The translations under genes were made by a program, and so were the position numbers. The notes below the pieces were generated by a model that was given only the letters and a program-made list of their open reading frames with translations, ran no database searches and was not told the origin of the DNA. From NCBI RefSeq assembly GCF_026571515.1, contig NW_026866846.1, forward strand, positions 62,001 to 126,000: 64,000 bases of DNA. The letters run 5' to 3'. This DNA comes from Ruditapes philippinarum (Eukaryota). Every line of letters starts with the position of its first letter. Positions within the stretch are counted from its first letter, which is position 1. Positions 34,741-60,953 of this stretch are shown one piece after another.

Positions 34741-37462
34741 ATGGATGAAGAAATACTTGTAATCATTAAACTTTTGGTAAGTTTAAACTTGTTTTATGTG
34801 ATCTTTCTTTTTTTTACATAGCTTTTTTCAGACGGATAAGGTTAACATGTAATAGAGATGCAAGAACAGAATTATTTAGTTATTTGATTCAACTAATTAA
34901 GCACATAAGTTACTAATGTTACTTTGTCAATCTATAGCATTCATGCTGAGTTAATTTCTAGGCATATTTGATATTCTTATTAAAATCATCATGGTTTAAA
35001 ATGGCAAACGAAATGGTTGACCGTAGTTTGATTATTTACCAACTGTTATCTTCTTCAATATCGATATTGTACGAATATCTGTATTGTATATGTAGTACAT
35101 GTACTTGTTATACTGAAAAGGTCAATTGTATTAAACATGCAACATATTAACTTTGTCACTGTTACGTAATATAATTGAAGTTTAATTGTAAACCAAACAA
35201 AGCCATAGCGCACTACAAAATTTACCACGTGTCGATCTTTATGAGGATATAGCGTATATATCAGCCACTGTTATTTTTAAAGCATTTCCTCGAAAAACAT
35301 GTGCGATGCAAAAATGGGCGAAGATAGATCACAAGACAAAATATTTTTACACGTTTGGCGTATAAATAAATCCTCAACTCACAAAACATATTTGAATGAC
35401 ATGAATTGTTTGAACCTCATCTGGTCGCCAATATTGGTTAATGATATAATGTTTTTTTAAAAAGATCTTGACGAAAATCTCTTAAATTGCTAGTCCAACT
35501 GCAACTGTTGCCCAATGTAATGTGTCCTGCATATGACTAAAGCAGTTATTATAATTAAGAATTATGTAATGCTAATACATATTGTAATTGTATTACTTGA
35601 TAACCAAATCTTCATTCACTGAAAATGTTCAGTTCTTAAATTTAATATTATTTTTTAAAGGTTCTCTCTTTTGTATTGAGCATTGCGATTGGTCAGTGTC
35701 CGGTAAGTGTATTTTTATTAACTTGTATTTGTAACATAGTCTTTTATGTATTCTATTAATAATAGCAAATGGTCTAACAAAATGCTACGTAGTGGAACCA
35801 AAACAACAACATTAGGTTTATGTTAGACGAAATATTTGCAATTTATATCATTTCCAATTGAAATTTTGTCAAGATTGCAATCGTATTTTTGTATTCGTTA
35901 AATTATTTAGTTTGATTATTCTGTACCTATACCATTTCTTAAACCACATTTGTAAACAGCATGTGACTTTGGTTATACATGTATTTGCAAACAATCGTTT
36001 ATATATGGCTATATAACCCGTCAAAAATCTGTATACTTAATACATGGGACGTTAAGTCATGTAGTTTAAAAGAGGTTTGCGAAAAAGGTATGCAATTTCA
36101 ACTTGAAACTTATTGACTTTTTTCAGGTCGGCTTCGATTGTCCTGTTGGCCAAATTTGTGCAATGGCTAGACAGGACTACGGTCCAGCACGTCCAGAATG
36201 TATCAGTGAGTGTTAAATGCTATACTTTTCAAAAATGTTAAGAGTTATGTGCGAGCATACAGTAAAAGGTTCAGCTATAAGGTGTCTTTTTGTGCTCAGT
36301 TTGAAAAATTCATCATACAAATATGTGTATTACTAAATATAATTTAACTCTTAACAACTCATCATGAAAAAATGCCAATTTCATTGTCATAGATACATGT
36401 ACAGGTGTATTTATGTCAATTCGTTCCGCCGTTTGTTTTTATAAAAGTAGTTGTAAAATCATACAATACTATAAGAAAAAAAGATACGAAGAAAATGAAA
36501 TTAATTTCAACGTAATTGAGATAAAGCATTTCATATCACATGCGTTCGCAAGGAAAACACTGACATGTGCCGTTCGGATCAGAATATCCGTCCTGCAGGT
36601 ACATACCTATGGGCAAACCATGTTACCGCCCAGTAGACAGGTACCCTAGGGACGGATATTTTGATGTAAAACATTATATTTGACAGATATTACCAATCGG
36701 GTATACATGTTTATAACATTTATTTAAGACTCGGGAGGTGAGGAGGCCGCTTTATTACATCAGGCTATGGGAGGCAGACCAGCAAGTCCATATACAAGAG
36801 CAGATCATTTCGGATTTAATCGTTATCGAGGATCCCGATATCATTCTGGATATTTTGGACGCCCATATCTTGGCTTCCGAGACCCCTATGTAAGAGATAA
36901 TTGGAATCTAAGGACAGGCAGATCTAGATATCCGATCGGTATAACCAGATATCCTTCCGTGTTTGGACGCCAAGTTCAAACTTTCGGTGGGTATGTTCCA
37001 ACGGAATTGCCCGGTTTTCACGCTCATAAAATTGGCCCACGTCCAAGTGTTGTTAATGACATGACTGGATTAAAACGTCATAATGTGACCGTCGATAATA
37101 ACAATAAGAATGTTCTCACGCAAAACGGGTCAGGAAATGTGGATGTGAACCAAGTTGCATCACAATCTGCTACACCTACGCCTCCTGTTGATCCCATGCA
37201 TCCAAAACATCCTGGTCCTCTTGTTCCAGTTGACATCCATGATGTTCTTGGTCCAGGAATTCATCCGAAAATCACACATCCAGAAGTTGATCTACCTGTA
37301 GAACCAGTGGCTGGGCATGGTAACCAAGGTATCCCTCTTGGATTTGTACAACCAGTGGCTGGACATGGTAACCAAGGTATCCCTCTTGGATTTGTAGAAC
37401 CAGTAGCTGGACATGGAAATCAAGGTATCCCTCTTGGATTTGCAAAACCACGTGTTGTTTAG
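34741..37462 (+). CDS. Cluster gene E: secreted Tyr/Arg/Gly- then His/Pro-rich protein, ~296 aa, no C-terminal Cys module
   Basis: Exons 34741-34776 (MDEEILVIIKLL), 35661-35702 (VLSFVLSIAIGQCP), 36127-36205 (VGFDCPVGQICAMARQDYGPARPECI), 36729-37462 (SGGEEAALLHQAMGG..., ORF 36767-37462). Phases 0,0,1, 891 nt in frame. AATAAA at ~37749. Confidence 0.88.
37301..37444 (+). repeat. Coding 48-bp tandem repeat x3: (E/Q)PVAGHGNQGIPLGF(V/A)
   Basis: Three near-identical 16-codon units at the C-terminus of gene E. Confidence 0.95.
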
Positions 37463-38113
37463 AGGACGATTTATTTATATTGTTTTATATAAAAGCAAAA
37501 CATCTCACAAAAAGGAATCAAATGATCTAGTTTTCTTTGAACGCCGCCTTTCCTTGTTGTTCTTTTTCATCATATTTTGTATTTTGTCATTATCTTACTT
37601 TATTACAAAAATGCAAAAGAAGAGAGTATAATAGTTGTGAAAATAACATAAAGCGACAATTTGCTAGTTTGTTTCGCAGTATGTTTTGCTTTTGTATTTA
37701 GATAGCTTTTTATAATCGTTGTATATGTTCTTAAGCGATTTGCTTTGCAATAAAAGAAAATCTATAATGTGTTCCATTTTCTTGTTTTAATTATTTTTTG
37801 ACGTCAAAGGAATGAATTTAGTAAAATTATGTTCACAAAATGAGTAAATGTGAAACTATTGCATGAATAACTTTTAAATATTTTCTTACTTTATGATTTT
37901 AGCGAGGATATTACAAATGTCTATTACCGTCAATTACTAGTATATTACATTGTATATGATTTCATATAATGATGAACTGATCTTATGTCTTATAGTAAAG
38001 TCTGATTTTTAGGAGATTTTTGTATATATGAGGTAACTGTAACACGCAACGTCACTTACTGGATTACACCACTTATAATTTTCGTTGCTACCGTAATTTA
38101 TTTAACATTTCAA

Positions 38114-38492
38114 GTGTTAAAGGGGATTGGACGGTAACATACATTGTCCACTATCATCCATGAACAGGCTCAATAAAACAAAGCCTGTGACATTTTTAAT
38201 TTTGACGCTTTGGGCGTTCTTTAGGGATTCCGTTTTTTCACCTAATTTCCTGATTGGTTTTTACTTCACAACAACAGGTGTCCAGTGCTGTGTGGCAGCT
38301 GCTAAAAGTTGCCTCAAACTTCACTTCAGTATTGTTGTATTGTTCTGGTCTTTTGAGCAGTGATTCCTGCAGCACGTTATTGTTGAAGATATTGATTACC
38401 TTCAAAGCTGGAGATGGGGTGATTGGGAGATGTTGCGCTTAAATCTATATTATCTCTGTTGAACAGACTCAATACGCCCGAGTCTGCAATTC
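38114..38492. repeat. Repeat family R1, ~1.3 tandem units
   Basis: Hairpin motif recurs at ~38164 and ~38463 (period ~299). Homologous to 1-300 and 62945-63070. Confidence 0.85.
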
Positions 38493-39890
38493 GCATACAT
38501 TATTGTTTTACTGCTTATCAGGAATCAATCCTCTTCCAGACTGATACTAGAATGAGCAGGTTGCGTTGAAACAGTTGGTTGCTGTTTGTTTGTTTGTTTA
38601 TTTATTATTTTGCTTCAGCATACGTGACTATGCCTTATGACACCGTTTGCCTGCAAACGTGAAATTTTTCATGTATGCTGTTAATCTAAATAATAGATTA
38701 CCTGATAAAAATCGTTTATAATAGCTTTCTTTTAGCAGCTGAGATCAATTATTTAATCAATTCCCTTTATACATTCCAGACTTATGATATCTCAGTTACA
38801 CATGTCCTCAGAAAATGATCAAATATATACTCACCACTAATATAAATTGTGGTTTCCAAATATTAAGGCATATTGTTTTGTGCCTTACGATACAAGTAAA
38901 TCTACACATTTTGTTTAGACTTCCAAGAGACATACATACATAACTGGTGTCTGTCTGTCATATATATCTCCACAGACTACAGCATTCGGAGGCTATGGGA
39001 AAATTGAAGTGTTGAGTTGTATCACATAAAGTTCACTAACATAGTTCACACATACAAAAACAATATTGTGAAGAAAAACTTCTGCTTCCTTTGATGATAC
39101 ACAATTTGAATTTTATCAGCTTGCAATACATGATACAGTGATTGAAAATAAAAGTTGCTTGTAAACACATTAACGCATATATACATTGAATTGCGTAGGG
39201 TTTCTGCAAATGATACAGTGATTTCGTTTCTACAAAGGGAACATTATGAATTAACCTGATAAAGGTATAAAAAAATAAAAACATACAACCTGAAATCAAG
39301 CTTGCAAAAACTTCTGCATGTAATTAAAGCAAATATGTTAACCTGACTTTATTGCAATATGTAAATTAAAAGAATTCTAAATAAAGACAAAGCTCGAGTT
39401 AAACTTTTACTGTTAACGATAATTTCGATTTTAAATAGACCAATTAATGAACAATTTGGCTATTTTGCAATTCAAATCAGTCTATATGTTAATAACCAAT
39501 AAAGATATATTTATTTGAGGTTTCTATATCATTGATACAGTAAAACACTGGCCAATAAAAATGTTTGCCTTATCAATCAGCCAGGGTGAATGGTCGTTTG
39601 TAAGTGCATTATATCAATTTTTGTTTTGCATTAGATGGATGTTACAAAGTATGCTTTGCTTATTCATTATCCCTAGATTTTTCAAGTGAGGCAGCGACTC
39701 TGAATAAATATTATCACTGACAAAATGATAAAAAACTAGGGCTGTAATCCCAAATAAAAATCCTTTAACAATACATTAACCATTCTATAATTGAATAATT
39801 ATAACGGGGTCAAATAAAGGATTGCATTGTAATAGTGGTTTGAATCGTGCGATCTTTTGGATGGGCCCTTCTTTAAATTCCTGTCATCCT

Positions 39891-39930
39891 TGATTGACAT
39901 TGATTTGTTTGACGTAAAGGCAATGTTAAT
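39891..39930 (+). promoter_or_regulatory. Composite promoter element of gene F: TGATTGACAT + TGACGTAA + GTTAAT
   Basis: Matches the elements upstream of C and G in order, spacing and distance to ATG. Confidence 0.6.
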
Positions 39931-40019
39931 GATTGGCGCGTTAGATCACCAAATGCAAATTAAGTAAACGATATATATCAAGTAAGCACTCTTCAATTCA
40001 TTTATTTAGTGACTTCAAA

Positions 40020-42693
40020 ATGGATACGGAAATACACAGAAACTTCATATATGTTTTGGTAAGAATAATTTTCTTTTCTTTAACAATAGAAATGATACAA
40101 TAAATGAATTGTGAGTTAACGATACATGATAGAGCATTATGATAAAACTGCAACATTAAAAGTTTATTTTTCGAAGATTTAACATTAACCTTTGGACGTT
40201 ATATGAATGACTAACAAATTGGAGTCTTACCATGTAGCAGTTATTAGCGTCTTTCTGTATTTGTTGTCATATTTTACGGTCCCAAATTGAGATTCAGTGG
40301 TAATGGCGACTGGTTTAAGCCATCAGTGTCAGACTAGGCACCAAACCAAAACATTTGAGTTTGATCATATCCTTATTTAATCCAGTAGAGTGAAATCCAT
40401 CAGATAAACAAACTTCAGTTCTAAATTTGAAAAAGATATCTTAATATGTTTCAGTTGAAACTTTTGTTGTCCGTTTTTACGCACTGCTTTGCCATGTGCA
40501 CACTTTTTTAGAAATGGTTTACATTTTTGTATTTACAGTTGCTGGCTATATGTGTAAGCTATACCATTGATGCTATCCCTTGTCCGGTAAGTTTATGTTG
40601 TAATCTCAACTTTCCTTGAACTCACGACTTAATCCTTTTAGTAAATACGCTTATATATAGACTTATATATATATTCCATATAATATATGTTCTCTCTGCT
40701 TATAAAATACATCTTAGCTGCAATTGTTGTATTTGCTTCAAATTCTGCTTTGCTAATCAAAGTTCAAATGCTCATCATAGTATTACTGTACTCGTCTAGA
40801 AAAAAAATCACAATCTAAGGCTTATTTACGACGTCTTACTAGGACCAGGATATTTTTTATGGTTTTCGTGGATTGGACCTTCTTGTGATTATTTTAGTGA
40901 TAACTAAGATAACTATATATGTTCAAATTATTTTCAAAGGTATTGGTATTGTTCGATAGATCTAAATGATTTCATAATTTTCAAAGAAATGCGGCAGTAT
41001 TCTAAGCAGAATGGTGTGATTTGTACTATAAACTATAGATATACTATCGTGCTTCTCTGTGAGAACAATCACGAACATAATTTAAATTTAAAGTAAATGA
41101 TGCTCGTCGTTTTGTAAGTTTTTGTATTTATTTTTATCTTCAGGCATGGTATAGATATCGTGATGTTTATATCGACCTTGCAAGTATTTTTTTAATATGG
41201 ATTTGGTGCGAAGATATACTGCCTCGTGATTATTTACAAATCTTGACAATTTCTAGAACATTTCACTTTCATTTTTCAAAGTATTTGGTATACGAGAAAT
41301 TCAAAATATATCTCTCAAATTTGATAAAAGGAAGACATGTAATTGCTAAAAGTAGTCTTTGTATAATATGAAAGTAAACATGTTTTTGACTTTACAAATA
41401 TAATATATTATCCACTACGGTGGACACAATATGAAATAATAGTTGTGTACATTATATAAGACTTTGTCTAAAAAAAAAAGAATGCCAATATTTATTTTAA
41501 TCAGGGAATGGCTTCCATACGAGATTTATTCATTCCTTTTAAAGAAATTCGCAAATAAGAATTTCATGGATTTCATTGAAATTTTCTGTTTCATTTTTTA
41601 AAAATATTCTTACTTCAAACGATAAGCCAGTATAATCTTTAATTTTATGTTGATAAATGAGCATATGATTATAGCAATTTATTACAAAAAGCAAAGTTTC
41701 GTATCAATTGGTAAAGCTTTGATTTTTAAATCCATTTATAAATAAGTATTGAAAGTTAAAATGAGAGATTTATTTAGTATTTATTTATGTTTTTGCATCC
41801 AGGTTGGGAGGAGTATAGATTATTACAAAGAGCTTTAAATGGTGGCGCCACCGGTCCAGGTACTGGAATAGGAGAATCTCTGAGGCCAAGTATTACAGAT
41901 CTTTCGGATGTCTTACAACTTCACATCAATATAAACAATACAAATGATAATCAAATACAACAAACGGATTCGGGAAATGTTGCAGTAAGCCAAGTCAATG
42001 CTCAATGTAAGTTAAACTCATTTAATAAGACAAAAAAGAAATAAAATGTATTCGGAACTATTATCAGAAAATTTACGTTATTTACATGAAATGATACGGT
42101 TAAAAACAACAAAACTCTTATGTTAAAAAACGGAAGAATCTGCGAAATGAAATTATAAAGGAACTCTTTAAAATACACCTGTATTTTTTAACAATATTTC
42201 CGAATCTAATTTTGTGGTAATTAGATGAAGCAAATATTGTTATTTCATATCAATTGCCGGTGTCTGTATATATAAAGTGAACAATAAGAAAATAACCTGA
42301 GCAAAGAAAGTACGAATACGAGAGAAACGAACACAAAGCAAATAGTGACAATTTAAAAGTCTGTTTCATTGAGGCTGTTCATGAGAGAAAATGTTATGTG
42401 CATCACCTCTCACCCCGAGCACAATAGATTTAGACAAAATATTAAATAGAAGAAACCGAAAAACACTCATTCAATAAATACTGTAATCTCATTTACAAAT
42501 ACATTTTTCCGCCCTGCAAAATACATTGTATAACTATTTAAGTTATTTTTATTATATTTCCTTTTTTATTTCAGTGTCACCTGACCAGTGCCAAAGGTGC
42601 TCAAACGGGAGATGCCCTGGAAATCAACATTGCATATTTACTGCTGATTGCCCAGGAATGAAAATGTCATGTCGCTCAATCGTCGGTAGATAA
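40020..42693 (+). CDS. Cluster gene F: small secreted protein with Asn-rich motif and 6-Cys module, ~149 aa
   Basis: Exons 40020-40058 (MDTEIHRNFIYVL), 40539-40586 (LLAICVSYTIDAIPCP), 41144-41183 (AWYRYRDVYIDLA; weak donor), 41803-42006 (WEEYRLLQRALNGGATGPG...SGNVAVSQVNAQ), 42575-42693 (SPDQCQRCSNGRCPGNQHCIFTADCPGMKMSCRSIVGR*). 450 nt in frame. Confidence 0.82.
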
Positions 42694-43160
42694 CACTCAA
42701 AACAAGGACTACTGGACACAAATTGGAAATACCTATAAACAGAAAACACCAGTTTTAATGTTAATATTATTTGCCATATTGCATATACATATATATAAAA
42801 ACACATGAATACATCCCACTTGTTATGATAAAGTCTCTTATTTCATAATCATATCTTGATATAGTATTATGTTCATATATCAATCCAAATAAACGTTTAT
42901 AATGTTTTATTGCCTAAGCATAATGACAATGCAAGTTTTATAGTAGCAAATGAGCACCAGATTATCCACTTGCTACATGTATTGAAAGAATGTTCTATTA
43001 AAGAATATAAACCTAACATAAGGCTTCAGAATATAAAGCAAACACAATAAAAACGACCTGCAAAATACACAGAGTCATTTAATCTTTAACAAACATATCA
43101 TTTACCTTAAAAAGCCACATAGTGCATTGTGATATCAAATTCTGCAAAAGGTTGATTTCT

Positions 43161-43612
43161 GGCCCCGTGTTCACAAAGATTTAAGAATCAGGATCAAGAT
43201 CAGGATCAAATCTTAAAACTCAAATATTCTCCATTGTTTATCCTCATAGATTAAATATCTAATATTAACATGATAAAACTTGACTTGAAATAGCATGTTT
43301 ATGAAATTTTAGAATAAATTTATCGTTTTTTCTTTAAGATATGGGTATTTCACAGTTGATCCAAATATTGATCTTGATCCTAAAATTGATCCTTATTCTG
43401 ATCTGATTATTTTTTGTATTTGTTTTATTATTCATAGATTTTATCCCAAATAGGTTTGTTTCTTTGCAAATTAAATTATTTGTACATTTTGAATATGGAC
43501 CATTTTATTCTAGCAAAAAACGATCAATATTAGTTATAAAAAACAAAGAAAATAAAACCAGGATCACTTGATCCTGATCCTGATCTTTTCTTAGTGAATA
43601 TAAGTGAAGGCC
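43161..43612. mobile_element. MITE-like element with GGCC..TTCAC ends and GATC-rich subterminal repeats
   Basis: ggccccgtgttcac...atcaggatcaagatcaggatcaa at left; ttgatcctgatcctgat...gtgaa...ggcc at right. Confidence 0.5.
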
Positions 43613-44618
43613 ACAGATATAGTAAGCAATTTTCATTACTTACAAGTGATTAAAATTTTCAAGACATTTTCGCTGTACAATATTTAAGGATGTCGACATT
43701 TGTCGGAGAACCGTTTACTTACCAGAGGGAAGAATGCAATATTAAAGCTTTTGTTGTTTTGGTAGTATTTATTGTTGGATCACATGCAATTCGTTGGAAA
43801 AAAATGTTATATGTACTTTGCAATGTGTTTTTTAATATATATTTGTTTTACTCCTCGGTAAAAATATAAAATAAACACTTATGACAATAAAGAAAAAATA
43901 TCTATGTTTTCGTTATCATTTACTGCATTGCCCTCAATATGATTGCCTAATTAAGTCTTCTTTTGTGTTTTCCTTCTGAAACTTCTGGTACCGTGTGGAA
44001 ACATTTTACCCCTATTCCTTTGAAGAGACTTCTTAAAACTGTACAAAAATGTCTACATGAACAAGGCAATCTCACAGTGAACAATGGAGAATTATTGGCT
44101 ACAGATTTATGTATCACTTCAAAGTCACATGTCAAGCGACTTCATGTTCGTTTTATATATACTGTACCTTCAAATGGATTTTCTGAAAACTTGCTTCAGA
44201 TGTTAACCGACAATATCAATGATAAATCCATCTGTCAAAACTGTAACCTTATATCTCTGGATTCGAGGCACTTAGTTTGGCATTCAATATTAAGTTCATA
44301 CATTAAATACGTTAATAATCTTTCCATGGAGAGTTGATGGGCCGCCAGTGGTCTTTCTTCACAAAAAAAATCTATCTTAACACTTGTGATTCGATTCACT
44401 CGTATTCCAATCAATCAAATCCTTATACTTTACATAATAGAAACAAATCGTTAGTTTCAAGAAACTTCATAATTGTGTACTAAACATGGACATTGTCCTA
44501 AATCATATCATTTTATGTCACAAATTGACAAATAGAAAAAGATGAAGTCAAGTTCTCTGACCGTACATTGACACGTTAATTTGTATGTATAAATATATAT
44601 TGTAAATACACATAAATA

Positions 44619-45025
44619 TATAGAGGATATTCAAGTTTTTTTTCTATAAATACGAGGATTTCTATAAATATCTCGTACAATTTTTATTTTCATTGAGTGG
44701 TATGAAAATAAATAGTTAGTGAGAGGCGGTAGCCGTGAGGAAAAAATGATAAGTTTCGTACGACAAGATGAAAATAAGTCGTGAATTTATAGAAAAAACT
44801 TAAATTTTCTGTTTATAATATACAACGTTTACTTTCATGACATTACAAACTGTTTTTCAAAGACTTCCCCTTAAATGTTGAGTCTTTGCTGAATATAGAA
44901 GAAAGAAGTCCGGCTAGACATCAGTGACAATATGGAATATGTTTTACTGCGGTGAAAAATTAATTTTACAGTGCAAATACGGAAAATGAAAATACGCATT
45001 TTATTTCATCAATGTTTCTCAATAT
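44619..45025 (+). mobile_element. Non-autonomous DNA repeat family, copy 2
   Basis: Aligns along its length with 50168-50545. Confidence 0.75.
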
Positions 45026-45916
45026 TGAATATCCTCTATATATTTATATGTATTTACCACAAATTTTACATAAAAATAAACGTGTCGATGTATGGTAACC
45101 AGGTTACAAAACTTGACATTATCTGTTTCTATTGAGAATTTATAAGAATATAAAATATGTACTTTATTATTCTGAAAAAATACATTAACTGCGTTAGTGG
45201 TAAGTCTCAGTACAGCACTGATCGATACTTTTATTTGCCTCATTAATCACTCGAGGTGAATGATCGGTTGTTTATGCGCCATCAATATTTGTTTTACATC
45301 TTTTGGGTGTTACAAAACATGTCGATCACATTCAAATTTTTTTTTATTCTTTCTTAAAATAAGACAGTCGATATACATAAATACCAATAGCAAAAACTTC
45401 CCATAGCTTGGAACTATATGTTTCGCTTGCTTTATTCCAAAGTATTTATTTACCCATGTACATACAATATTTAGCAAATAAAAACTAGGATAAGACCTAT
45501 ATAAGCATCAACTTTCGGTTCTGATCCCTTTTCATTCATTTCATGCGTTGTAAAGTTCTATTTGTAAATTGTAAATGTGTATACTTGTTTGAAATAACTA
45601 TGTGTAAAGTATAAAGTATTTAGAATTGTATTTGTGTTACTGGCAAATATTGTATTTTAATAATAAAGACTAAAATTGAATAAACTAAACCTTAAAATAG
45701 AATGTCATACAGGGCAGTTTTCAACATGCTACACGCTCGGTTTGATTGGACGTATGCGTAAACGTAACATGTAACGTCCATGTCCTCAGTCCCCAGCTGA
45801 AAAAGGTCTTGACTTAGTAAATATGAGTAATTATTATTTTATTCTTGTTCTTGGTTTTAAAGAACTAGAAATAAAATGGGTTTTGAATCGGCCCTCTTTT
45901 AAATTCCTATCACTGT

Positions 45917-45955
45917 CGATTGACATCGTTCGTTTGACGTAACAGTATTGTTAAG
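45917..45955 (+). promoter_or_regulatory. Composite promoter element of gene G: CGATTGACAT + TGACGTAA + GTTAAG
   Basis: Matches the elements upstream of C and F. Confidence 0.6.
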
Positions 45956-46035: not shown

Positions 46036-49000
46036 ATGGATACGGAAAAATCGAAAATGGTCATTTATTTTTTGGTAAGAAATGTTTACTTTATTGCAAC
46101 AAAACTTTGAATGCGGATTTAAACATTATGCTATCGAATAAAACAACCTGACAGTCTTATTAATTCCTTAAAATAATTTATATAATCGTGTTAGATAGTC
46201 GTGCAGACAAGCAGTTTCATGGTCATAAAGTATTGGTTGCTTGCTAATTTATCCATTATCATTAAAGTTTTGACCTTAAAACATGTCAAAAATAATACTT
46301 ACTTAATGTAAAATTTTGTTCATTCTGTTTTCATATGGATATTATTTTGCAATAATCAGATTCAGTTCTACATGCAAAAAATACATTGTAATCTTTAAAA
46401 AATATAAAATAACTAAAAGTAAATGTTAAAATTACCTTAAAACCTCTCTCTCTGTTGTTTAATTTGTATGACCTGCTTAGTCTTATATTGTACATTATTT
46501 CTTTAAAGTTGCTGGTCATATGTATTAGCCATACAGTTGATGCTATCCCCTGTCCGGTAAGTATTTACTTAGTCATTTCAAAGAAACTAGTAATACAATA
46601 CATTATATGGATAAATAATAGTGCTCAATTTCTCAATTACTTACTTTTTAAGTCGAGCATTTTTATTCAAAATTTGTGTTTGATATATTTAGTGGTTGAA
46701 AAAAAATATATTGTCAAATTTAAGCGTTCTTTTTTCAAATTCTTGGAAACATTTACTCAACAACAACTTATCATTTGATATTATATGATATTATCAGCGT
46801 ATCATGCTGTGTAAAATTTCAAAACATAATTTCAGCCACAAAGCTGTTTTGTCTTTGTACAATCAACATTGTTCCCAATACATCTGTCGCGCAAGTGCGT
46901 CTCGACGGAAAGATGAATTTTATTAATGCTTACTTTACCCTATGTAAGAGTGACACATGTTTCATATAAGCTTAAAGATTTCTGCTCAATCGTGGATGCA
47001 ATTGGTAATTTGATTAGTAAATATTGAAGAAAAAGAGTGTCGAGAGTGATACATTCTGTGCATGCCGGAAGAAATAGTAAATTGAATTATTATATCAAGA
47101 TCTTAATTTTCAACTCCTATAAGACTTTATTTCCTACATTTACTTTTATTGGATTATAAGGTTATGATTAATTGATTTTTTATGTAAAAAGTTGGTTAAT
47201 ATTTAAAATATGAATAAAAAAGAACCACAAGGGATTCCGTTAACGAAACGCCCAAATAGACTGCAACCGAGAAGGGCAGCTAAAATAATACTCCTTCTAC
47301 AGGCTTATACTCAAATGTTACATAGAACAACTAAACATAAGAGAGAACATTTTAAGTTACGTAAGTCCATTTTCATTGAGTTAGTACTTAAATATTTACA
47401 GAATTGGTATAGATACCGGGTATGTCACGGTCGCTCTTGTACTGTTGTAAGGCATGGTTTTGGTCGTGCAAGGTACGATTGTCTATGTAAGTAACACCGT
47501 TTATGATTTATTTTTTTACACACATTCTACTGATATAATTCCACGCAATCATGTACTTTGATTTATGACTGTCTATTATGTAATTTTCTACAAAGACCGA
47601 AATGAACCATCTCCTCCTAAATACGTAAAAAGGCCCTTTGAACTTATTTTTTTTTTTCATAGTTAACTTTTCAACAGAATTTAATCGATTTTATATTAAA
47701 TTTAATATATTATCATTTAACGAATTACATGTTTTGGTAAAATGTATTTAGTAAGTAAAGTCAGGATTGACAATTTGATAATTATCGCATTTTTGCATTA
47801 GGTACAGGATTCCTATTTTGAAGTACATTTTGACTCCATATGACTTTTTTTTATTTTTTCGGCTCTTCCCTGTATTTTTACACTTTTATATGTATATTGT
47901 GTAAATGACTTTTACTTCTGTTTTACCTTTAGTCCGATAAGATTATAACTATAAGCTACTAAAAAGATCAGTTAGACAATAACTACTATATTAAAGATTT
48001 ATTGTTCTTCTAAATAGCCGCACAGGAGGCTGAATTATTACAAAGAGCTCTTAGTGGAGGTGCCACAGGTCCAGGTACAGGATTAGGAGAATCTCTACAC
48101 GGACGGTCAAGATTATTAGATCTGTCAGAACGCTTACAACTTCATATCAATATCAACAATGACAACAACAATCAAATTAATCAAGCCGATTCAGGAAATG
48201 TTGCAGTCAGCCAAGTGAACGCAGAATGTGAGTTAATGTTAAGAGCACCTATATTCTATAAGAATATAACAATAAGAAATAAATATTTGAAAATTAAAAT
48301 AGAAAGGAAAAGAGGAATTTGATAAAGTTTATATGATGTTCACTGTAGGTGATCGTGATGTCCAGTAAAGCTCAGAATCTGAAAAATTATTTCATAAATG
48401 TATGATAAAATGTCTTCTCTTGAAAAAGCATATACATGTATAGGGTGAGTTAGTAATATATAAAAGCTATAAAATAGTGTCATAATGAAAGACTAGTTAT
48501 ATGTTGTCTATTTTTTTCTTTTAATTTCGTCAAGATAAATGCAAAATGTTGATTTCTTAAACAGTGCAGAATAATTATATTTTATAAACTTTCTAAAACT
48601 AATGTTTTTACGAATTTCTTGAGTGTTACTGTCTGCATTGAATTCAATCGTAACATGCCAATACTATTTGAACTGCGTCACGACAAAACCAACATAGTGC
48701 GTTTGCGACCAGCATGGATCCAGAACAGCCTGTCCATCCGCGCAGTCTGATCAGCATCCATGCTGTTCGCTTACCAGCCCTATTACAAAAAAGAGAAACT
48801 GATAGCGACAGCTTGGATCCTGATCAGACTGCGCGGATGCACAGGGTGGTCTGGATCCATGCTGGTTGCAAACGCACTATGTTGGTTTTGTCATGGCGCG
48901 GCTCATTTTGTTTATTGCAGTGTCACCAGATCAGTGTCAAGCATGTCCAAATGGAATATGTCCGGGACAACAACATTGTGTTTTTACTTCCTCCTGCCCA

Positions 49001-49036
49001 GGAATGGAAATGTCGTGTCGGTCAATTACTGGTTGA
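46036..49036 (+). CDS. Cluster gene G: paralogue of F with intact N-terminal Cys module, ~165 aa
   Basis: Exons 46036-46074 (MDTEKSKMVIYFL), 46509-46556 (LLVICISHTVDAIPCP), 47402-47486 (NWYRYRVCHGRSCTVVRHGFGRARYDCL), 48018-48227 (AQEAELLQRALSGGATGPG...SGNVAVSQVNAE), 48921-49036 (SPDQCQACPNGICPGQQHCVFTSSCPGMEMSCRSITG*). Phases 0,0,1,1, 498 nt in frame. Confidence 0.9.
48669..48905. mobile_element. Palindromic MITE in the last intron of gene G
   Basis: ~100-bp inverted arms: gacaaaaccaacatagtgcgtttgcgaccagcatggatccag...catccgcgcagtctgatcag / ctgatcagactgcgcggatg...ctggatccatgctggttgcaaacgcactatgttggttttgtc. Confidence 0.9.
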
Positions 49037-50167: not shown

Positions 50168-50545
50168 TATAGAGGATATTCAAGTTTTTTCTATAAATAC
50201 ATGATTTATTTTCATCGAGTGGTATGAAAATAAATATTTCATGAGTGGCGGTAGCCACGAGTGAAATATGGTAATTTTCATGCCACAAGATGAAAATAAA
50301 TCATGTTTTTATAGAAAAAACTTGAATTTTCTGTTTATTATAGACATTTTTCTCTTTCTTGACATTAAAATTTGAAAGACTTTCCCTTAAATTTTGAGTA
50401 CTGGCAGAATTTAAAAGAAAGTAGTCCGGCAAGACACCATTGAAAATACGGAAAATATGTTTTACTGCAGTGAAAAATAAATTTTTACAGTGAAAATACG
50501 GAAAATGAAAATACACATTTTATTTCATCAATATTTCTCAATATT
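50168..50545 (+). mobile_element. Non-autonomous DNA repeat family, copy 3
   Basis: Internal palindrome tttctataaatacatgatttattttcatc...gatgaaaataaatcatgtttttatagaaa; homologous to 44619-45025. Confidence 0.75.
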
Positions 50546-50659
50546 TTATTTAAAAGTATATAATAAAACTAATAAGTTTTGCTTAGCGTCTGTAAGCATA
50601 TTTTAAACGATAGCCGTCTATGAAGAGTCGATGGCATCGTACGTAATTAGTTAAAAAAT

Positions 50660-50905
50660 AAATCTCGAAAAAGAATAGATCTCCCGGGAGCACTGACAAC
50701 CAGGTTAGAAAGTGAAAATTGCAGACTCGGTTTGGGTGAATCTATTGATGAGAGAAAACGGAACTTGCTTTGCTTAAATGCTTATGCGGTGCTAAGGAGC
50801 ATGGACGGTAACTTGCACTTTTCAGTACCGTATATGAACAAGCTCAATCAAACCGAGTCTGCAACATTTTCAATTTTGTCGTTTTGTGCTTTCTAAAGGA
50901 ATTTA
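50660..50905. repeat. Repeat family R1, two oppositely oriented fragments
   Basis: ttgcagactcggtttgggtgaatct (~50719, reverse), then gtgctaaggagcatggacggtaacttgcac...ctcaatcaaaccgagtctgcaac (forward). Confidence 0.75.
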
Positions 50906-51393
50906 GTTTGTCTCTATTATTTTTTCGCACCAATTATCCCGCCTCTTAGTAACAGAATAAGCAGAACTCAATGTTTAATACTATAAGAATCTTACACTGC
51001 CTGCCGGTACAGACTGGAATATCTAGGTCGAGGGTAACTGTTTACGGCGGTAACGAGGCTCTTTTCAGAACAGAAATTACGGAAACAGATATTCTCATTA
51101 CGCACTTTTTTCTTATATTAACGTATGAACTTACAACTTCATTCATAACGGTAAAATGACGTCATATTAAGAACGTAATTTATTTATAAAAGACGCGCGG
51201 CAATGACGACATTTTAAGCACGTAACTTGTCTTACATGGGGGCTTAAACTGTAACGGTAGATAATCATGTCTGATATGCGAGAAAATACGGTTCTGAAAT
51301 CAATTATCCCGAAGGACAGAATATATAACAAAAAAAAACTGAAATGACGTACGGAGCATCAGATATAAAAATAAGATAGAACGAAACCGCTAA

Positions 51394-53786
51394 TGCAGGC
51401 GTCACACTGTCTCGAAATTGACACCAGATGGGCATACGAATATGAAATTCTTAATTTCGTGCGAAGATAGCCCCGAAATTGGTCGACAGTCTCTCAACAG
51501 CCGAAACAAGTACGATTCCTACAGAAGGTCACGCGATCGCATCCGAGCCACACACGATTCCTACCGAAGGTCACGCGATGGCATCCGATACACACACGAA
51601 GTCACCTCAAAGATGCAATTTTGTACCAAGTAGTTTACCAGCAGGACACGCGAAGGTCACAGGATAGGTACACGACGTCGTATTTTGAGTACGATGCCTT
51701 CGTACGTGGTTACGAAGGCGTCAAGTGACCTTCACCTCCGGGTGGTATACAACCCACGGCCAACCGCGGCAAATTTCAGTTGCAGATAGTATTGGGAGCT
51801 AATTAAACTACGTTTAAACTTTATTTTGGCTCTTCATATTACTATCAAAAACAATTCTATTCACACAAAAATCTATGATAAAAGTGATGACTTTGATTAT
51901 GGTATAGTAAACTATCCACATTTAGATGGAGACGTACCGCATGCAACATCTGACGGGGTATATGTATCTCAGTAAATAAGATTCGCTAGAGCTTTTAGCA
52001 ACGTGAAGGATTTTAACAAGCTAAATATTTTCATTACTAGTAAGCTACTCAAACAGGGCTACCGCTATTATAAATTACGTAAATATTTTACAAAATTTTA
52101 CAATCGTAACTTTGATTTAATCTCAAAATTCAGTAGTGATTCAAAAATGATTTTAATGGAGATGTTATTTACAAACTTCGCAAGATCTTTGGTCATTGTA
52201 ATTTTTCTGTTGCCTTTACTAAAATTATTAAACGTTTAACCAAAAGAGGTTTTGACCCTACTTTTTTAGATATACCGCATGCTTAGTGTTCAACACTTTA
52301 ACAATTGGTCCTTTCCTCGACGGACCAAGTGATATACTCTATGATGGACAGTTCTTAATGCCCTTTGGGACTGAATTGCCTTAATGTTCGTCTTCTGCCT
52401 TGCTTCGTCGGGCCCTTGTAGGTGATTTTTTGTTACTCTGTCTTCCTTTAAAATATTGAGTACTTTTGTTATGATCATATGTGTATTCCTTTATTCATTG
52501 TACATGATCGTTTCGGTGTTTTACCATAACAACTGTTATAAATTTACCTCTACTTGGCGGGGATTCATTTTATTTACACCGTCTCGTTTATAGGAACATG
52601 ATGGGCTAACAGTGAGGTTTGGTGCACCATTAACCGGTTTTAACTGCCCAGTAGTACTTATGCTGCTGACCGGACTAAGGCGGCGCCCCTCTTTGTTCCT
52701 CAGATGCATGTCTTTGTTATTTCATACTGTTTTGGTGACACTTGTGTCAGTGTCCCTTGTTGTTTTCTCATCTACGGTAAGTATTTTCCCTTTTGCCCCT
52801 AGTTTTATGTATTTAATAAATCAATCATTTATTTGTTTTCCTTGATTTCCTTGTCGTTTACCATTAATTCGTCTTATGTGTCATTTAAGTGATAAGCCTA
52901 TCAGTGCTTTACCTTGCGCCCTTTCCGTTTTTCTGAGGGTCCTCTTGTGTTACTTGGTTCTAGTTGCTGGGTCGTTGGGGTTGCGTTCATTAAACGCTAC
53001 CTTTCCTTGTTGATCTTGTTTATCATATTTGATAAAACTTTATCATGCTACCCAAGGTGGGCCTGTGGGCCTTATCATGTTTTCTGTGCTGCTGCCTTCT
53101 TTTTCTCGGTTGACTCATCATCAAAGCAAGGAATTCTGTGGGAAATTTACTGAAAATTATTGTAAATTAATTGCAAATAATGGAAGCTTTTGATGTCTCT
53201 GTAGACATGTGCAAGAGTGACAGATGAGGAAGATGGTTTAGCCGTTTTTATGTCCACCATGATAAACATGCAACGGTTGAGCCACTAAAAATGCTTTCTT
53301 CGGCCTCATCGTGGTCCCATCTCGATGACATCGTACCAAAATACGATGGTGACACGACGGTATTGCGAGGGCTTCACGTAGTCGTGTTCCCTTTTTAAGA
53401 CTATCGGGAATCTTCGTGTTTACTTCGTATTGTCTTCTTGAGGCTAAAAATGCCAGATTGCATCGATGATCACACAAAGAAAAGACGAAGACCACACGAT
53501 TTGACAAGATGGCTTCACGATGGCCTTGCGAAGGGCAAAATTGACATACGAATTCAACACGAAAATGAACCTTCGCAATGTCTTCGGGCAATTGTTTGGC
53601 ATGCCAAAGATTTTGGAACCGCTCACGAAGTTGCTGCCGGAGCTGGTAATATTCAGCCGGGGATCATACGATGACAAAAGATGCCCTCACGAATGGCACG
53701 ATGTTATTACGATCAGATCCGAATTTGAGCATTTCCTTATTCGTGTGTCCATCTGATGCCAAATTCGGGACAGTGTGACGCCTGCA
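51394..53786. mobile_element. PIF/Harbinger-type non-autonomous DNA transposon (TAA TSD, ~70-bp TIRs)
   Basis: taa|tgcaggcgtcacactgtctcgaaattgacaccagatgggcatacgaata at left is the inverted counterpart of tattcgtgtgtccatctgatgccaaattcgggacagtgtgacgcctgca|taa at right. A 3-bp TAA duplication is characteristic of PIF/Harbinger. Confidence 0.85.
51815..52330 (+). pseudogene. Penelope-like retroelement RT C-terminal fragment, degenerate, nested in the Harbinger element
   Basis: IHTKIYDKSDDFDYGIVNYPHLDGDVPHATSDGVYVSQ*IRFARAFSNVKDFNKLNIFITSKLLKQGYRYYKLRKYFTKFY fits the YDKRDDF..IVNFP..YGVYISQLIRFAR..KLL.QGY..KL.K.F.KFY pattern of Penelope-like RTs; in-frame stop. Confidence 0.85.
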
Positions 53787-54496
53787 TAAAGAACACCTAA
53801 AATCGCGCCAATAAGACAGTCATCTTGTAGACCAGAAACGAAACTAGACAACTCTGACAACAAAAGATTGTTTTCCTTCTTCCACAATGCTTGCCCTGCA
53901 AGACTATACTGTTAGACCCAACTTCGACATTAAGTCGAAACATTAGCCGTGTAGGACTGCTGTGATGAAATAATATCAAATAACACCCTACCAGACTATG
54001 GGAAATGGACACTGGCGTAAGTTCAAGTTGATTAAAGCTTGCAATAACATACTGCAACGGCGAGCGAAATATTTTCATCAAAGGGAATTTAAAGGAACGG
54101 ATATTTCATACATTGTCATAGAGCGGCAAAAAGACATTAATATTTTCAACCTGTGTCAGCCTAATGTTTTAAAATACTAAAGAAATTCAATGGTTAATTT
54201 AAACATCTCATGCTTTTTAATTATGATACTCCAAATATATAGATTTAACCTGTCACAATCGTTCTTTAACATGCTCACTCCGCTTATTTAGTTAAGACGT
54301 TATGTGAATAGTTTTACCCCTCAATGAATATAAAATAAATTTATACTAATTGATGCAAATTTATTTCAAAGGACCAATCAATTTTATTTGTCATGTCCTC
54401 ACCATTAAAAACATTGACGTACTTTGTTGATTATTTATTTTGTATTTATTTTTATCTTAAAACGTGTTATTATTTAACTGATGAGCGGACAGCTCA

Positions 54497-54503
54497 TATA
54501 AAA
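54497..54503 (+). promoter_or_regulatory. TATA box of gene H
   Basis: TATAAAA ~70 bp upstream of ATG 54568. Gene I has TATAAAT at 59169-59175. Confidence 0.45.
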
Positions 54504-54567
54504 AGATGTTCAATTGACACTTTGGCTAAACATACATTTAGTACTGCCTTTGCAAAGGATTGCAATA

Positions 54568-56515
54568 ATGGGTGCTTTAAAATCACTTGCTTGCTGCTGT
54601 CTGTGTCTGGTAAGTATTTCATCCTTTTTTATATTGAAAGTTTTTTCATAATGATTAGCATTAATAATATAACATTTCTATCGCTTGTGTAAACTTTTCT
54701 TTCGGCTGTTGGGATATACATGCAATACTCTTTTTAACATTCTTACGCAAAGCACTTATGTTAACAACATGATGTGAACGATATTTAACTTTTCATTGAC
54801 TAACAGCCTATTAATCTTTAATGTTTAGTGATAGTTATATAAGTATGAATAATGTTGTCTTTAACTACATCTAGAGCTAATCATTGTTTTTGTTATTTTC
54901 CAGGTGGTTTGCTTTTTGCCAGATTTTACAGTTGCCCAATACCTTTCATCAGGTAGGTTACTTACATGATGTGAAAACTAAACTATGTTTAGATAACTGA
55001 ACGATTAAGATTAATTATAATTAAGAGTGACCTTTTGCAGACATGTTAATAAATTTAAATTTAATCTATAATTCACTTACAAACTTTATAATAGAGTCAA
55101 ATCGTATGTCAATAAAGATTAACAATGGGGCACAACATACACGCAATGAAGTCCCCTCAATTTACTGTAGCATAAGGTTCTCATTGAGGTCGCGCAATTG
55201 GAACACAACAAGCTATAGATAATGAATTATACTTTGATTAAATCATGCTAGGGGAGTTCACTAACGTTTTTTTTATTCATCTGTTAGGATAGTAAAATAA
55301 ACGAAAGTCCTGTATAAGACAAACAAACATCTATAAGAAACAAAGAAAAGTATATTTTGTCTTACAGCATTTGGAGCGATGCGAGGAGGAGTCATGTACC
55401 CTGGATATCCTGGATATCCATCACCAGCAATATACCCACCAGCCGACATGTATCCATCAGGAGTCATATATCCCGGTATGGACATGTATGACCCTTATCT
55501 TGAACGAGGACGACCAATTATAGGCGGGGATCTTATCCATCGTCCTGCCGTTGTAAGCGATAGGTCAGACAGAACTGTAGAACACATAAATATATCCAAC
55601 AACAACCAAAATATTCGTGAAGAAGTTGGTTCCGGAAACGTTGTCGTAAATCAAGGTAAGGTAGACAAAGACAGTATTTTTGCTGGCGTTTTTATAAAGT
55701 AATACTTATGGCGATTGGGTTGTTTTGTGTGTGTATGTTTTTTTTAATACATGTATAAGAAATATCCGTATAATACTGAATGGTTAAATATAGCATTCGT
55801 AGCGTTTTTATCGTTTGTGGCAGTGTATTAGCCATTCACATTCTGTTTTATAAGAAACACTATGTTATCTAGCCAAAATAGTCAAAGTATTTTATCTCAT
55901 AGATTTACTTATTTCTTTTACTTAAAGGTCCGTTATGCCTCAGAAATACATGTACTACCAATTTTATTTCTCAAAAACTTTCAATTGTTGGTTATATTGT
56001 TATAGTTTCAAAATAAAACTCATTTGCCGTATACATGGACTATCTTTTGCAACTATAGCTCTGTTGGCCATTGGACTAATTATAATTAATTAGTATTTTG
56101 TTTTGAAGTCAAAATACTATTTTGTTTACATTTTGCTACCTTTGTTGCACACAACTGTATGTTCAACATTACATTCTTTAATTGTGTAACATCGAATAAG
56201 TTCTAAATCCATTATTAATAAACTATATAACTCCTGTTTGGCATTTCTAAAGAATTGAAAAATATTGATTTTTGAGACATTATATGCCTTTAATGATAAG
56301 TTTTAAAAGAAATACATAGTTGAGCAATTGAAATTCATTCATGGTAGAAATTTATACCAAAAATTTTCTTATTTTTAGTTACATCAAATAATGCAATGTG
56401 TAATTGCCAAATTGGTAGATTTGATCAGTGTCCGTATCCTGAACGATGTGTTAGTGAGGGAACATGTACAGGAGGAAGTGGAATTTGCCGGAACCCTGGA
56501 TTGTTTATGATATAG
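54568..56515 (+). CDS. Cluster gene H: secreted Tyr/Pro/Met/Gly-rich protein with Asn-rich motif and CxC-type 6-Cys module, ~171 aa
   Basis: Exons 54568-54609 (MGALKSLACCCLCL), 54904-54952 (VVCFLPDFTVAQYLSS), 55368-55655 (FGAMRGGVMYPGYPGYP...GSGNVVVNQ), 56379-56515 (TSNNAMCNCQIGRFDQCPYPERCVSEGTCTGGSGICRNPGLFMI*). Phases 0,1,1, 516 nt in frame. Confidence 0.9.
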
Positions 56516-58010
56516 ATGTTAATTGTTTTCATATATTTTTATACAATAAAATAATACATTAATATAAAATGTTTTAGTGTCATAACTCATTTTATCACCG
56601 TGATTTAAATTTCTAAATAATGTTTTACCAGAGAAAGATCAGCATATGAATGTATATAACTATCGTGTCTTTTGAGATGATATGTTTCAACTATCTGGTT
56701 TTTATTCTCGTTGGTCTAGAGTAATCTCTCTTTTCCAAAATTACAAGAATACTAGCAATAAATTACCTTCAGCAAACATACATGTATACATTTCAACACT
56801 TATTTTCATTTTACAAAAAGTACATGTATATTGCATTGTCAAATATATGTTTAATAATGCAGTGCAAGCTCACCATTTTTATCAACAACTTTTCAAGTTA
56901 TTAAATATGTTTTCTTGAATATGTTATGATGCCGATACCAACAACTACTTTAAATTTGCCAAAAAAGAAATGTTGACAATTAATTGCAAAACTCGTTGAA
57001 ATGACATAAATTTGTTTGCAATTTCTCGCAATAAAAACGAGTTTTACAATAAAAGGGAGTTTTACAATAAAATTTCGAAATTACAACTTATAGTCGAGGT
57101 ATTATTTTGATTTCATTTCTCAAGAAGGACGAATAATGATGTATAAGTAGTAATTTTCATTAAAGAAACTAAATGGTTTGACATTTCTTGCAAACTTTAT
57201 GTTAAAATATTTGATACTGACAACAGTTCAATTGCTGCAATACTTTTATTTTAAGAAAACGCAAATATGTTGCATTTTCTAATTCAAAGAAAACGAGTTT
57301 TGCAATAAAACCTTTGGATACACGTAAACTTCATGACTACCTTCTTCACGATCGTTTACATTTTAATTGCACTCTTGACAAAACATCTACTTTACAATAT
57401 TCGTTTTTCACCTGATGGAAATATGAGTCTATGGCAATGCTTTCATGTTGAAACAGTCCATTTTGATGCTAAATTTGCTGAATAGTAAATAACGCCACCA
57501 AAGTTACAGTTCAAACATAAATTCGACAATTTTACGTTCCCTTGAAACTTTTATCAGATCTACATAGTATAACATTTCTCAATTTATTGATGCAGAGTTT
57601 ACAAACAATATATTATAAAACAACACTAAACCTTGGTTGACACTTATTTTCGGTGACATGAGTTAGCCCGGAAGTAGCGACAACGCAATTAAGCATATAT
57701 TTAACTAGTCATATACCTTAATTATTTTACCTTAAATTCCTTTTTTATATCATAAAATTAAAAACAAATCAATCCAGTTAAGAATGCCTTGCAACAAATT
57801 TATTTAGAGATGAAAAATAATCATTTTTATCCCACGATTTTAGATTAATATACATACATGTTTTAGGGGAATGAAAATAAGGTTTTTAAAAGTACATCAC
57901 CCTTCATGTAAACTATCAATGACCTGAAGTATTTTAATATAAACAAAACCATTTTCTTAAGGATAATGACATTCGCTTGACAATATTTGCTGAAGTATGT
58001 TAACCATAAT

Positions 58011-58598: not shown

Positions 58599-59281
58599 AC
58601 ATACGACACGATAACAACCCAGCCATGCCGCCACATCAACCCTTATTGTTTCACCTCGGCTAATGACTGAAAGTATCGTGATAATACAAAGCCACTACCG
58701 CTTTCTTACGACAGTTTTCGGACACCTATTGTTAGTATATTTTTGTCAAAAGAGACGATGTATTTTTCACTTTGACGTCATTATTTGATAAGATTTCAAT
58801 ATGTTGTCTTGAATACAAACTAATTAGTGACAGTAATCCTCAAAACTCGGTATAACAGATTTTCATGAAAGTAGAAATAATGTTAGAGATATTGTCCCTA
58901 TATACTCAATCATTTATAATGTTTATGCTTTTATCTTTCATTTTTCATGTAATCATAGGGTTAATCAACCAGTGTGAATATACAAGTTTATAGAATGGTA
59001 GTTAGTACTTTAGCGTCACAACGATACTAAGTAAATTAATTCATAAATAAACCATCCACATTATAAACAACGTTTGAAGTTTTTATGATCGATGTAAAAC
59101 AGTCAAATAACAATCTTTCAAACTGACACAATTAACTGTTTAAAAAACGCGGACAGTGACGTTTTATGTATAAATTATACGTTAATCACGCAACGTTGTT
59201 CTAACAGATGAGACTATTTTAGTGTACAAAAAAGAAACAAATCATTCGTAATCTTAAACTCGTTTGTAAGGACTAACAGAA

Positions 59282-60953
59282 ATGGATATTATCAAATATT
59301 TCGGCTGTTTTGTTTGTTTGGTTAGTATACTTATTGATTTCCATACACATTTAATGCTACAACTTAACTTCTCCTTCAAAAATATTCTACATTTAATAAA
59401 GGCATCTGTTCAAAGTCTCTGTAACAGTAAAATATAGATATATGTTACGTTATCAGAAGCTTTTTTATAATAATTTATTCTATTCACTTATTCACTTTTA
59501 ACTGTGCGTATATTATGTGCCTTTTGCAAAAATATTGAATTTGTAAAGCATAGGTGTGGGATGTTGCTAAACAGACAAATTATCAGAATCTACAATTTTC
59601 GTTTTTATGCTGCCTAAGAACTCCGTTTTTTACAAATATTTCTGTGATTAACTCAGTTATTGTATGTGCATAAAGAAATTCAGTAAGTTTAAATATAATT
59701 TTTATACAGGCACTGTTCTATGGTCCAAATTTCTCGGAAGCACAACACATGATGGGAGACCCGTGTAAGTTTCTTTTTGATTTTATTTCATATTGTCGTT
59801 TAGATTATTATAAAAAATAAAGATACTGTAACACTGAATTCATAAAGTAGTAGTTATTAGAACACAGCTAAACAGATTATTTTATACGTAAAAATTATAT
59901 TTGATAATGTCAAAATTTCAATCATAAACATGGTATTCTGTTTAAACGCTATGGTCTCTTTGTTGACATTCATACAGAAAGTAAAACAAACAATTTTGTA
60001 AATGGTTTATATCTGTATCTGATTTTTCTTTACAGTTTATCCCCGTAGAGGAGGGTTTCGAAGAGGAATGTATCCTAGAATTCCGCCGATAAGGCCGTAC
60101 CCCCGAAGAATAATATATCCTGATACAGGCATTTATGAACCATCAATCCTCCCAGTAGTTCGACGTCCAGCTGTTGTTAGTGACAGATCCGATGCTCGCA
60201 GACAGAATATAAATATAAGCAATAATAACGAAAATATTCGAGAAAACCATGGTTCTGGTAACGTCAACGTAAATCAGGGTAAGTAATTTATATAAGACTC
60301 ATAATAACATCTTAGCACTGATGACCTTCTCCTATTACCTTAAATACTAAATGTAAGAAACATGCGTGTTTCGTGCGGGAATATCAATATAGCGAGCCAA
60401 CAATATGTGCTGCCATCAGCTAAAAAGGCTTATCGGGCAAAAATATGAGTACGCTCAGTTTCTGCCAGCTACATAGGCTAAGGAAATGACTCTTGTCTTT
60501 TGTAATTAGCATGTACTCAGTTAAGACTATTTGAACTGTAATGATTATCATATTTTTTCCAGACTGATATCACTTTAACACACATCTTGTAAGTATGAAA
60601 TAAAACCAGATAGGTTTGTCAGTATTTTTGAAATGATCATTACAGTTATAATATTATTATAAGATAAAATGTTAAAGATTTGTTTCTATGATAAAGTTAC
60701 TTGTACCTTGTTAAGTTGTTTTTAAATAGCTTTGTACTAGATTCCATTAATGCATACACACTTATAAACAAACAATATCATTTCAGTAACAAACTCCAGA
60801 ACGAGAAGATGTGACTGTCACGCAGATCCGTTTATGCAGCAATGTGGACCATATCAACGATGTGTTCGAGACAGTACTTGTACCGGAGGAGCAGGTAACG
60901 GCGTGTGTCAAGACGCTGGTTTTGGTGGGGGCCATGGCGGAATGATGATTTAA
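59282..60953 (+). CDS. Cluster gene I: paralogue of H, Arg/Pro/Tyr-rich, ~167 aa
   Basis: Exons 59282-59320 (MDIIKYFGCFVCL), 59710-59764 (ALFYGPNFSEAQHMMGDP), 60036-60278 (YPRRGGFRRGMYPRIPP...GSGNVNVNQ), 60787-60953 (TNSRTRRCDCHADPFMQQCGPYQRCVRDSTCTGGAGNGVCQDAGFGGGHGGMMI*). Phases 0,1,1, 504 nt in frame. AATAAA at ~60978. Confidence 0.9.

Follow-up and report, generated by a model that had tools for sequence, protein, structure and literature searches.

Among described systems, those closest to the element reported here are the moth chorion proteins and curlin. The accessible part of PMC13252134 describes, for the chorion proteins, one 51-residue domain free of insertions and deletions (indels), variable flanks, and an amyloid state established by cryo-electron microscopy whose fold contradicted earlier solenoid models. 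The curlin repeat, as set out in the accessible part of PMC10192328, consists of two N-x-psi-x-psi-x-Q motifs joined by X-G-X-X, with a Q-X10-Q kernel and 4-62 repeats per chain, and three-residue arcs occur in one curlin. Here we describe a 32-residue block encoded in five genes (E to I) of a nine-gene tandem array (A to I) on the + strand of a 64,000-nucleotide stretch of the clam Ruditapes philippinarum genome (assembly GCF_026571515.1, contig NW_026866846.1, positions 62,001 to 126,000), hereafter the window. This block, a conserved element in an array of venerid genes, is real and had not been described. We consider the chances about evenly balanced that an extracellular material assembles through the block as its cross-beta core, on a plan like that of the moth chorion proteins and with a putative fibre as the product.

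A sequence-only reading of the window had picked out an asparagine (Asn)-rich peptide in each of the five genes, and all five peptides translate from the + strand where it placed them, inside spliced genes with predicted signal peptides. The motif it outlined is real, yet the conserved unit is larger, beginning 8 residues upstream at D-x-S/T with an R-P-x-V-V-like lead-in, and the length that it called near-fixed is the same throughout and in fact exactly fixed, the peptide of gene E having been quoted one residue too early. Each block comprises 32 codons, running from D1 to Q32, at 37058..37153 (E), 41898..41993 (F), 48119..48214 (G), 55559..55654 (H) and 60182..60277 (I), all on the + strand, and in H and I a phase-1 intron lies one base past Q32. 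A degenerate DNA pattern of the motif matched five times in the window and not once in 100 dinucleotide-preserving shuffles, and the corresponding peptide pattern gave 0 matches in 200 three-base-word shuffles; together with the composition of the block, these shuffles rule out chance low complexity as the origin of the motif. When the profile of the 16-sequence set described below was run on the window it recovered only the five block sites (E-value at most 1e-15, the next match standing at 0.47), and genes A-D are therefore without the block. The family as a whole mixes three modules: the block itself, present in E-I, an N-terminal four-cysteine (four-Cys) module in A-G and, in every gene except E, a C-terminal six-Cys module.

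Homologues were sought with a five-block profile against 1.84 billion representatives (E-value up to 0.001), a search that distant forms could escape. On reading, 17 of its 19 matches carry the block, in one stretch each, and the other two (P0014 and P0017) are unrelated repeat proteins. All named matches belong to Ruditapes or Mercenaria mercenaria (two venerid genera), and six other matches are distinct from the window genes; in R. philippinarum a sixth block-bearing protein, LOC132733989, lies outside the window, and in M. mercenaria the block occurs in four consecutively numbered genes (LOC123553993, 994, 996 and 997). A further homologue search gave 3 matches, already known, among the best 8000 candidates, a search with the N-terminal module of P0015 recovered only P0015 itself, and two ESM Atlas queries gave no usable feature match, with structure rows at a template modelling (TM) score of 0.41 or below. 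The exact degenerate DNA pattern matched neither the GTDB genomes nor the JGI metagenome collection (0 matches in each), an absence that is weak evidence, the pattern being strict and the JGI scan having missed clam-like JGI proteins found otherwise.

Conservation was measured on 16 sequences, from which the near-duplicates P0001, P0003, P0004 and P0013 had been removed and to which three RefSeq proteins standing for them had been added. The block is free of indels in all 16, whilst the flanks are scarcely alignable, and pairwise block identity is 34-81% (median 47%). N14, N16, N18, S25, V28, V30 and Q32 are invariant, D1 and S3 are conserved in 15/16, and positions 10 and 12 hold only I, L or V; the string SGNVxVxQ, which the sequence-only reading called invariant, is present in all five window blocks but in only 10 of the 16 across the family. 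Proline is absent from block positions 6-32 (0/432 residues, versus 213/2177 elsewhere in the same proteins). The even positions 10-18 and 26-32 are never charged (0/144; mean entropy 0.35 bits) whilst the odd positions 9-17 and 27-31 are charged in 18/128 cases (1.68 bits), a contrast that is somewhat inflated because the position sets were picked after alignment and the members were found via the motif. Positions 19-24 are variable and charged in 27/96 cells. Twelve N-glycosylation sequons occur, in 10/16 proteins, all beginning at odd positions; the invariant Asn residues are ruled out as glycosylation sites, sequons being absent at 14, 16 and 18. The alternating, two-faced, beta-like pattern with invariant Asn and glutamine (Gln) that the earlier reading had proposed is thereby borne out at the level of the residues. 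Across the ten paralog pairs of window blocks the synonymous difference is 0.55-1.17 (near or at saturation) and the non-synonymous difference 0.12-0.39, and since the former far exceeds the latter, selection acts on the protein. Recent duplication or gene conversion is ruled out by the near-saturated synonymous sites, and the substitution pattern indicates that the window blocks are old paralogs under protein-level selection, shared by descent. In a tree of the 38-column block, 10 of the 13 inner branches were unsupported.

In AlphaFold2 monomers of G and LOC132733989 the Cys modules reach a predicted local distance difference test (pLDDT) score of about 70-90, whilst the block scores about 50 or lower and has no secondary structure; with so few sequences aligned (16 and 12), this evidence for disorder is modest. 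The assembly model that we favour starts from a block that is predicted to be unfolded in the monomer and that, once secreted, would build a cross-beta fibre in which every rung is supplied by one chain. Even-numbered residues (I10, I12, N14, N16, N18, G/N26, V28, V30 and Q32) would point inward, forming hydrophobic and Asn/Gln ladders, while the odd-numbered ones, sequons included, would lie on the outer surface; the charged and variable stretch 19-25 would form a loop. Arms rich in Pro, Gly, Tyr and Arg, together with the small disulfide modules, would extend outward from this fibre, and cross-links could fix them within an organic layer outside the cell. In amide ladders, Asn and Gln side chains are satisfied by the stacking of like copies, and for a disordered, proline-free, two-faced block of fixed length, stacking on its own copies would be the simplest way to satisfy the amides. 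Because each chain holds one copy of the block, each rung would come from another molecule, so mixing of paralogs is conceivable. In a bolder version, which we regard as doubtful, the array would yield a heteropolymeric amyloid in which one fibre takes its Asn-ladder rungs from six or more secreted venerid paralogs, a single rung from each, and so displays different arms and disulfide modules, the composition of the fibre being set by which array genes are on.

Several points weigh against a polymerising core. Beta structure, stacking, paralog mixing and a role in a material are all inferred, with the beta structure and fibres predicted from the sequence, and the low pLDDT of the block may reflect nothing but alignments of 12-16 sequences. 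As the family was found by a motif profile, relatives lacking the key residues would have been missed, the even and odd sets were chosen after alignment, and a sequon on N14 or N16 is impossible by construction. A sequon is present in 10/16 blocks, and a glycan on each rung would hinder an in-register homopolymer; the 34-81% range of block identity may limit mixing. Four paralogs, A-D, function without the block. Binding to a common partner would explain the conserved pattern just as well. A complex prediction for three G and three H blocks, run without alignments or controls, scored 0.00 and 0.02, where 0.34 is the mark, and is taken as evidence neither for nor against.

Binding to a common partner is the main rival to the polymerising core. 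In that case the block would serve for recognition, remaining disordered until it meets a scaffold protein, sorting receptor, polysaccharide or mineral face on which it folds; it would anchor different payloads with no fibre of its own, and we think this possible, if rather unlikely. One conserved face, fixed length and disorder in the monomer all suit coupled folding and binding, and outward sequons would be easily accommodated, but Asn, Val and Gln alternate strictly as the invariants, and none of the invariant positions offers a charged or aromatic anchor; a pattern of this kind is commoner in amide ladders than in docking motifs, and we know of no partner for the block. A small closed oligomer, in which a dimeric or trimeric beta-sheet or beta-helix clusters the Cys modules in place of an open fibre, would also agree with a single copy per chain, with the variable charged loop at 19-24 and with sequons in 10/16 proteins. 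We judge it improbable, as comparison of the block with the sequences of solved structures returned one match only (E-value 0.45) and the pattern seems to give no hint of the capping of sheet edges. Mucosal or humoral defence is less probable again: here the proteins would be effectors and the block would drive microbe-triggered nets like the N-terminal domain of mollusc big defensins, for which the accessible part of PMC6805989 supplies the mollusc precedent. The products are secreted, Arg/Pro-rich arms lie upstream of a six-Cys module and paralog C has a WAP domain, but Pfam gave no defensin family match at an E-value up to 1, gene E is without the C-terminal Cys module, orthologous types are conserved across two genera and the genes are nearly silent in two raw RNA runs (below).

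We hold it to be very improbable that the block is a pro-region or a folded part of the adjacent six-Cys module. The sequence-only reading had placed the block directly before the Cys module, which is right for F-I as regards order, but the first Cys follows only after 7-9 residues and one phase-1 intron; the gap is 5-14 residues in eight full-length relatives with six Cys, a proximity that suits a shared fold. Against this, the block sits on a separate exon, the module folds alone in the two AlphaFold2 models, and A-D have the module without the block. The block is present, with no Cys downstream of it, both in gene E and in LOC123553993, the ortholog of E in Mercenaria (E-value 2e-17, with 30% identity across 280 aligned columns). 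The earlier proposal that the block is independent of the Cys module is therefore upheld by its separate exon, its retention in this orthologous pair and its unfolded state in the two monomers; folding of the motif within the adjacent Cys domain, which the sequence-only reading had named as a refutation of its self-assembly idea, was examined and is unlikely.

The window is mostly 28-36% GC (AT-rich), with short exons and GT..AG introns, and predicted signal peptides, called by eye from the sequence and from the N-terminal helix in an AlphaFold2 model, stand on the array products (B and D being modelled partly). The exon models of E, H and I are identical to R. philippinarum RefSeq proteins, and all matched array proteins are named 'uncharacterized' there. 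Gene E (34741..37462; exons 34741-34776, 35661-35702, 36127-36205 and 36729-37462; 296 residues; XP_060576667.1) encodes a signal peptide, the N-terminal four-Cys module, an Arg/Gly/Tyr/Pro arm, the block and a Pro/His arm of three 16-residue repeats, the C-terminal Cys module being absent. Three 48-base repeats lie at its end (37297-37450) and the close relative P0001 has five, pointing to variable copy number. Gene F (40020..42693) has exons 40020-40058, 40539-40586, 41144-41225, 41803-42006 and 42575-42693. Its third exon is 82 bases long versus 85 in G and preserves the overall phase, with one of three Cys in frame; the two remaining frames contain Cys-bearing words like those of G, and the donor (GTGATT) is weak. 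The difference may be an assembly error or a real compensated shift. Gene G (46036..49036; exons 46036-46074, 46509-46556, 47402-47486, 48018-48227 and 48921-49036) encodes a signal peptide, a four-Cys module with helix, GGATGPGTG, the block and a six-Cys module, and RefSeq XP_060576671.1 equals our model plus three extra N-terminal residues. Its fourth intron holds an inverted-repeat element (48669-48905; 98-base arms, 90%), very deep in the four runs examined and likely a high-copy miniature transposon. Gene H (54568..56515; exons 54568-54609, 54904-54952, 55368-55655 and 56379-56515; 171 residues; XP_060576652.1) and gene I (59282..60953; exons 59282-59320, 59710-59764, 60036-60278 and 60787-60953; 167 residues; XP_060576653.1) share a layout of signal peptide, arm (Tyr/Pro/Gly in H, Arg/Pro/Tyr in I), block and six-Cys module. 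The third intron of I contains a 26-base segment (60563-60588) flanked by AG..GT, whose inclusion would lead to a stop and which is skipped in RefSeq.

Genes A-D (3340..29953, + strand) encode four-Cys and six-Cys modules flanking long polar linkers. In the 694-residue model of gene C, a WAP domain (22231-22365; Pfam E-value 9.6e-09) lies downstream of a long Gly/Pro/Gln/Phe repeat arm. Between D and E is an array of about 19 copies of a 62-base tandem repeat (30400-31860). A second conserved element, an amphipathic helix after the four-Cys module (20628-20706, 36729-36780, 41803-41881 and 48018-48096), is kept in Mercenaria and in C, F and G precedes GG(A/P)(T/S)GPG; AlphaFold2 folds the four-Cys module with this helix at pLDDT 73-85. 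Fold searches of the Cys modules returned nothing at an E-value of 0.001 or a Z score of 3, the faint rows being follistatin (E-value 3.4-8.2) and one knottin-type peptide (Z score 2.0); the spacing of the four-Cys module presumably resembles that of follistatin N-terminal domains. A short hydrophobic Met/Ile/Phe tail past the six-Cys module, found in H, I, P0012 and P0016, is kept across both genera.

Expression was read on 36600-56599 only, with gene I outside, using contigs from two studies (X1 and X2) labelled RNA by guess. Exon sequence of E is present in these contigs, one X1 contig runs from F exon 4 straight into exon 5, and G and H are represented by GT..AG joints; the first three G introns are seen as GT..AG joints in X2, and two H joints occur, of which 55653-56377, just past the block, is present in both. 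Because X1 and X2 were picked for containing E, the presence of F, G and H alone does not depend on that choice. Depth on the E-H exons was 3 or less in two raw RNA runs, of which about 4 and 6 in 100 were covered. Genes E-H seem to be expressed together and in some samples only.

RefSeq gives the family no name, and the family has neither a Pfam nor a solved-structure match. We found no publication naming six of the family gene identifiers, though supplements or the subscription literature on the shell proteome of the Manila clam might contain these genes, no title on the clam block family in the topical literature on amyloid, bivalves and Asn-rich proteins, and nothing on it in the accessible parts of PMC5854119, PMC9524096 and PMC7887640. 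If the block polymerises, its 16 natural sequences, 34-81% identical, would serve as a small test set for the mixing of divergent paralogs within a single amyloid fibre, a question that the chorion proteins also raise; the 32 residues would provide a tag with which fibres could carry folded modules, and the proteins would be candidate components of a poorly known organic layer in two farmed clams; if it does not, the block is still a new conserved interaction motif.

Set beside curlin as given in the accessible part of PMC10192328, the block is alike in alternating Asn, hydrophobic and Gln residues on the face predicted to point inward, with N/S-x-V-x-V-x-Q at 26-32 in 4/16 sequences. Positions 26-32 resemble one curlin motif, exactly in three of the 16, with a Ser start in one and a Gly start in 12, and inward residues fall on even positions. 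N16-x-N18-x-x-x-Q22 fits curlin motif a poorly, having Asn at the first psi slot in 16/16 and Q22 in 10/16, and the strand I10-I12-N14 is extra; the invariant N14-x-N16-x-N18 is likewise without a curlin counterpart. Whilst curlin has at least 4 tandem repeats of about 23 residues per chain, the clam block is single and lies in spliced eukaryotic genes, and whilst the curlin kernel is Q-X10-Q, Q21 with Q32 occurs in 2/16 blocks and Q22 with Q32 (Q-X9-Q) in 10/16. A geometry of this kind is possible because one curlin has three-residue arcs. The sequence-only reading had invoked the curlin Q-x-G-x-G-N arc, which is the least conserved part of the block (Q22 and G24 jointly in 7/16), and an N-to-Q spacing one residue shorter, which in the published register is a three-residue arc and not a shorter last strand. 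Its view of curlin as analogy and not homology is sound, given the single copy, the different kernel spacing and the lack of a Pfam curlin match at an E-value up to 1 in five motif exons and 16 family proteins. 'Convergent' does not suit the five genes, which share the block by descent. Membership of the curlin family fails on copy number and profile match, and a partial likeness of one strand remains.

The chorion-type organisation, a single indel-free domain with variable flanks in secreted tandem paralogs, is found in the clam family. Compared with the accessible part of PMC13252134, both are secreted paralog families with one indel-free conserved domain per chain and flanks varying in length and composition, and both pose the question of how many paralogs enter one matrix. 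The chorion core has 51 residues and is Gly-rich and hydrophobic, whereas the clam block has 32 and is Asn-rich; chorion genes number in the hundreds, against six known block genes in R. philippinarum; and amyloid is demonstrated for chorion, whereas for the clam block it is a prediction. Because the chorion fold overturned solenoid models, a beta-arch drawing of the clam block should be distrusted. Pfam scans of the motif exons and family proteins gave no chorion family match and no sequence likeness was seen, nor was there a defensin profile match in the same scans. The big defensins in the accessible part of PMC6805989 are also secreted, with an assembly segment ahead of a six-Cys module, but that segment is hydrophobic and the clam block polar. 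Clam proteins have no Pfam match to the corneous beta-proteins or to the RHIM and fungal amyloid signalling motifs. The corneous beta-proteins (feather and scale beta-keratins) are encoded in a tandem array and have a polymerising beta core of about 34 residues with variable Gly/Tyr/Pro/Cys tails, but they are intracellular and their hydrophobic hairpin core is without an Asn ladder. RHIM and fungal amyloid signalling motifs are short, single-copy Asn/Gln/Gly/Val motifs in different co-stacking proteins; they are cytosolic signalling switches, whereas the clam proteins have predicted signal peptides. The Cys spacing of big defensins differs from that of the clam six-Cys module. If the assembly model is right, the clam family would be of a known kind, a paralog family with a shared amyloid core, with a different chemistry.

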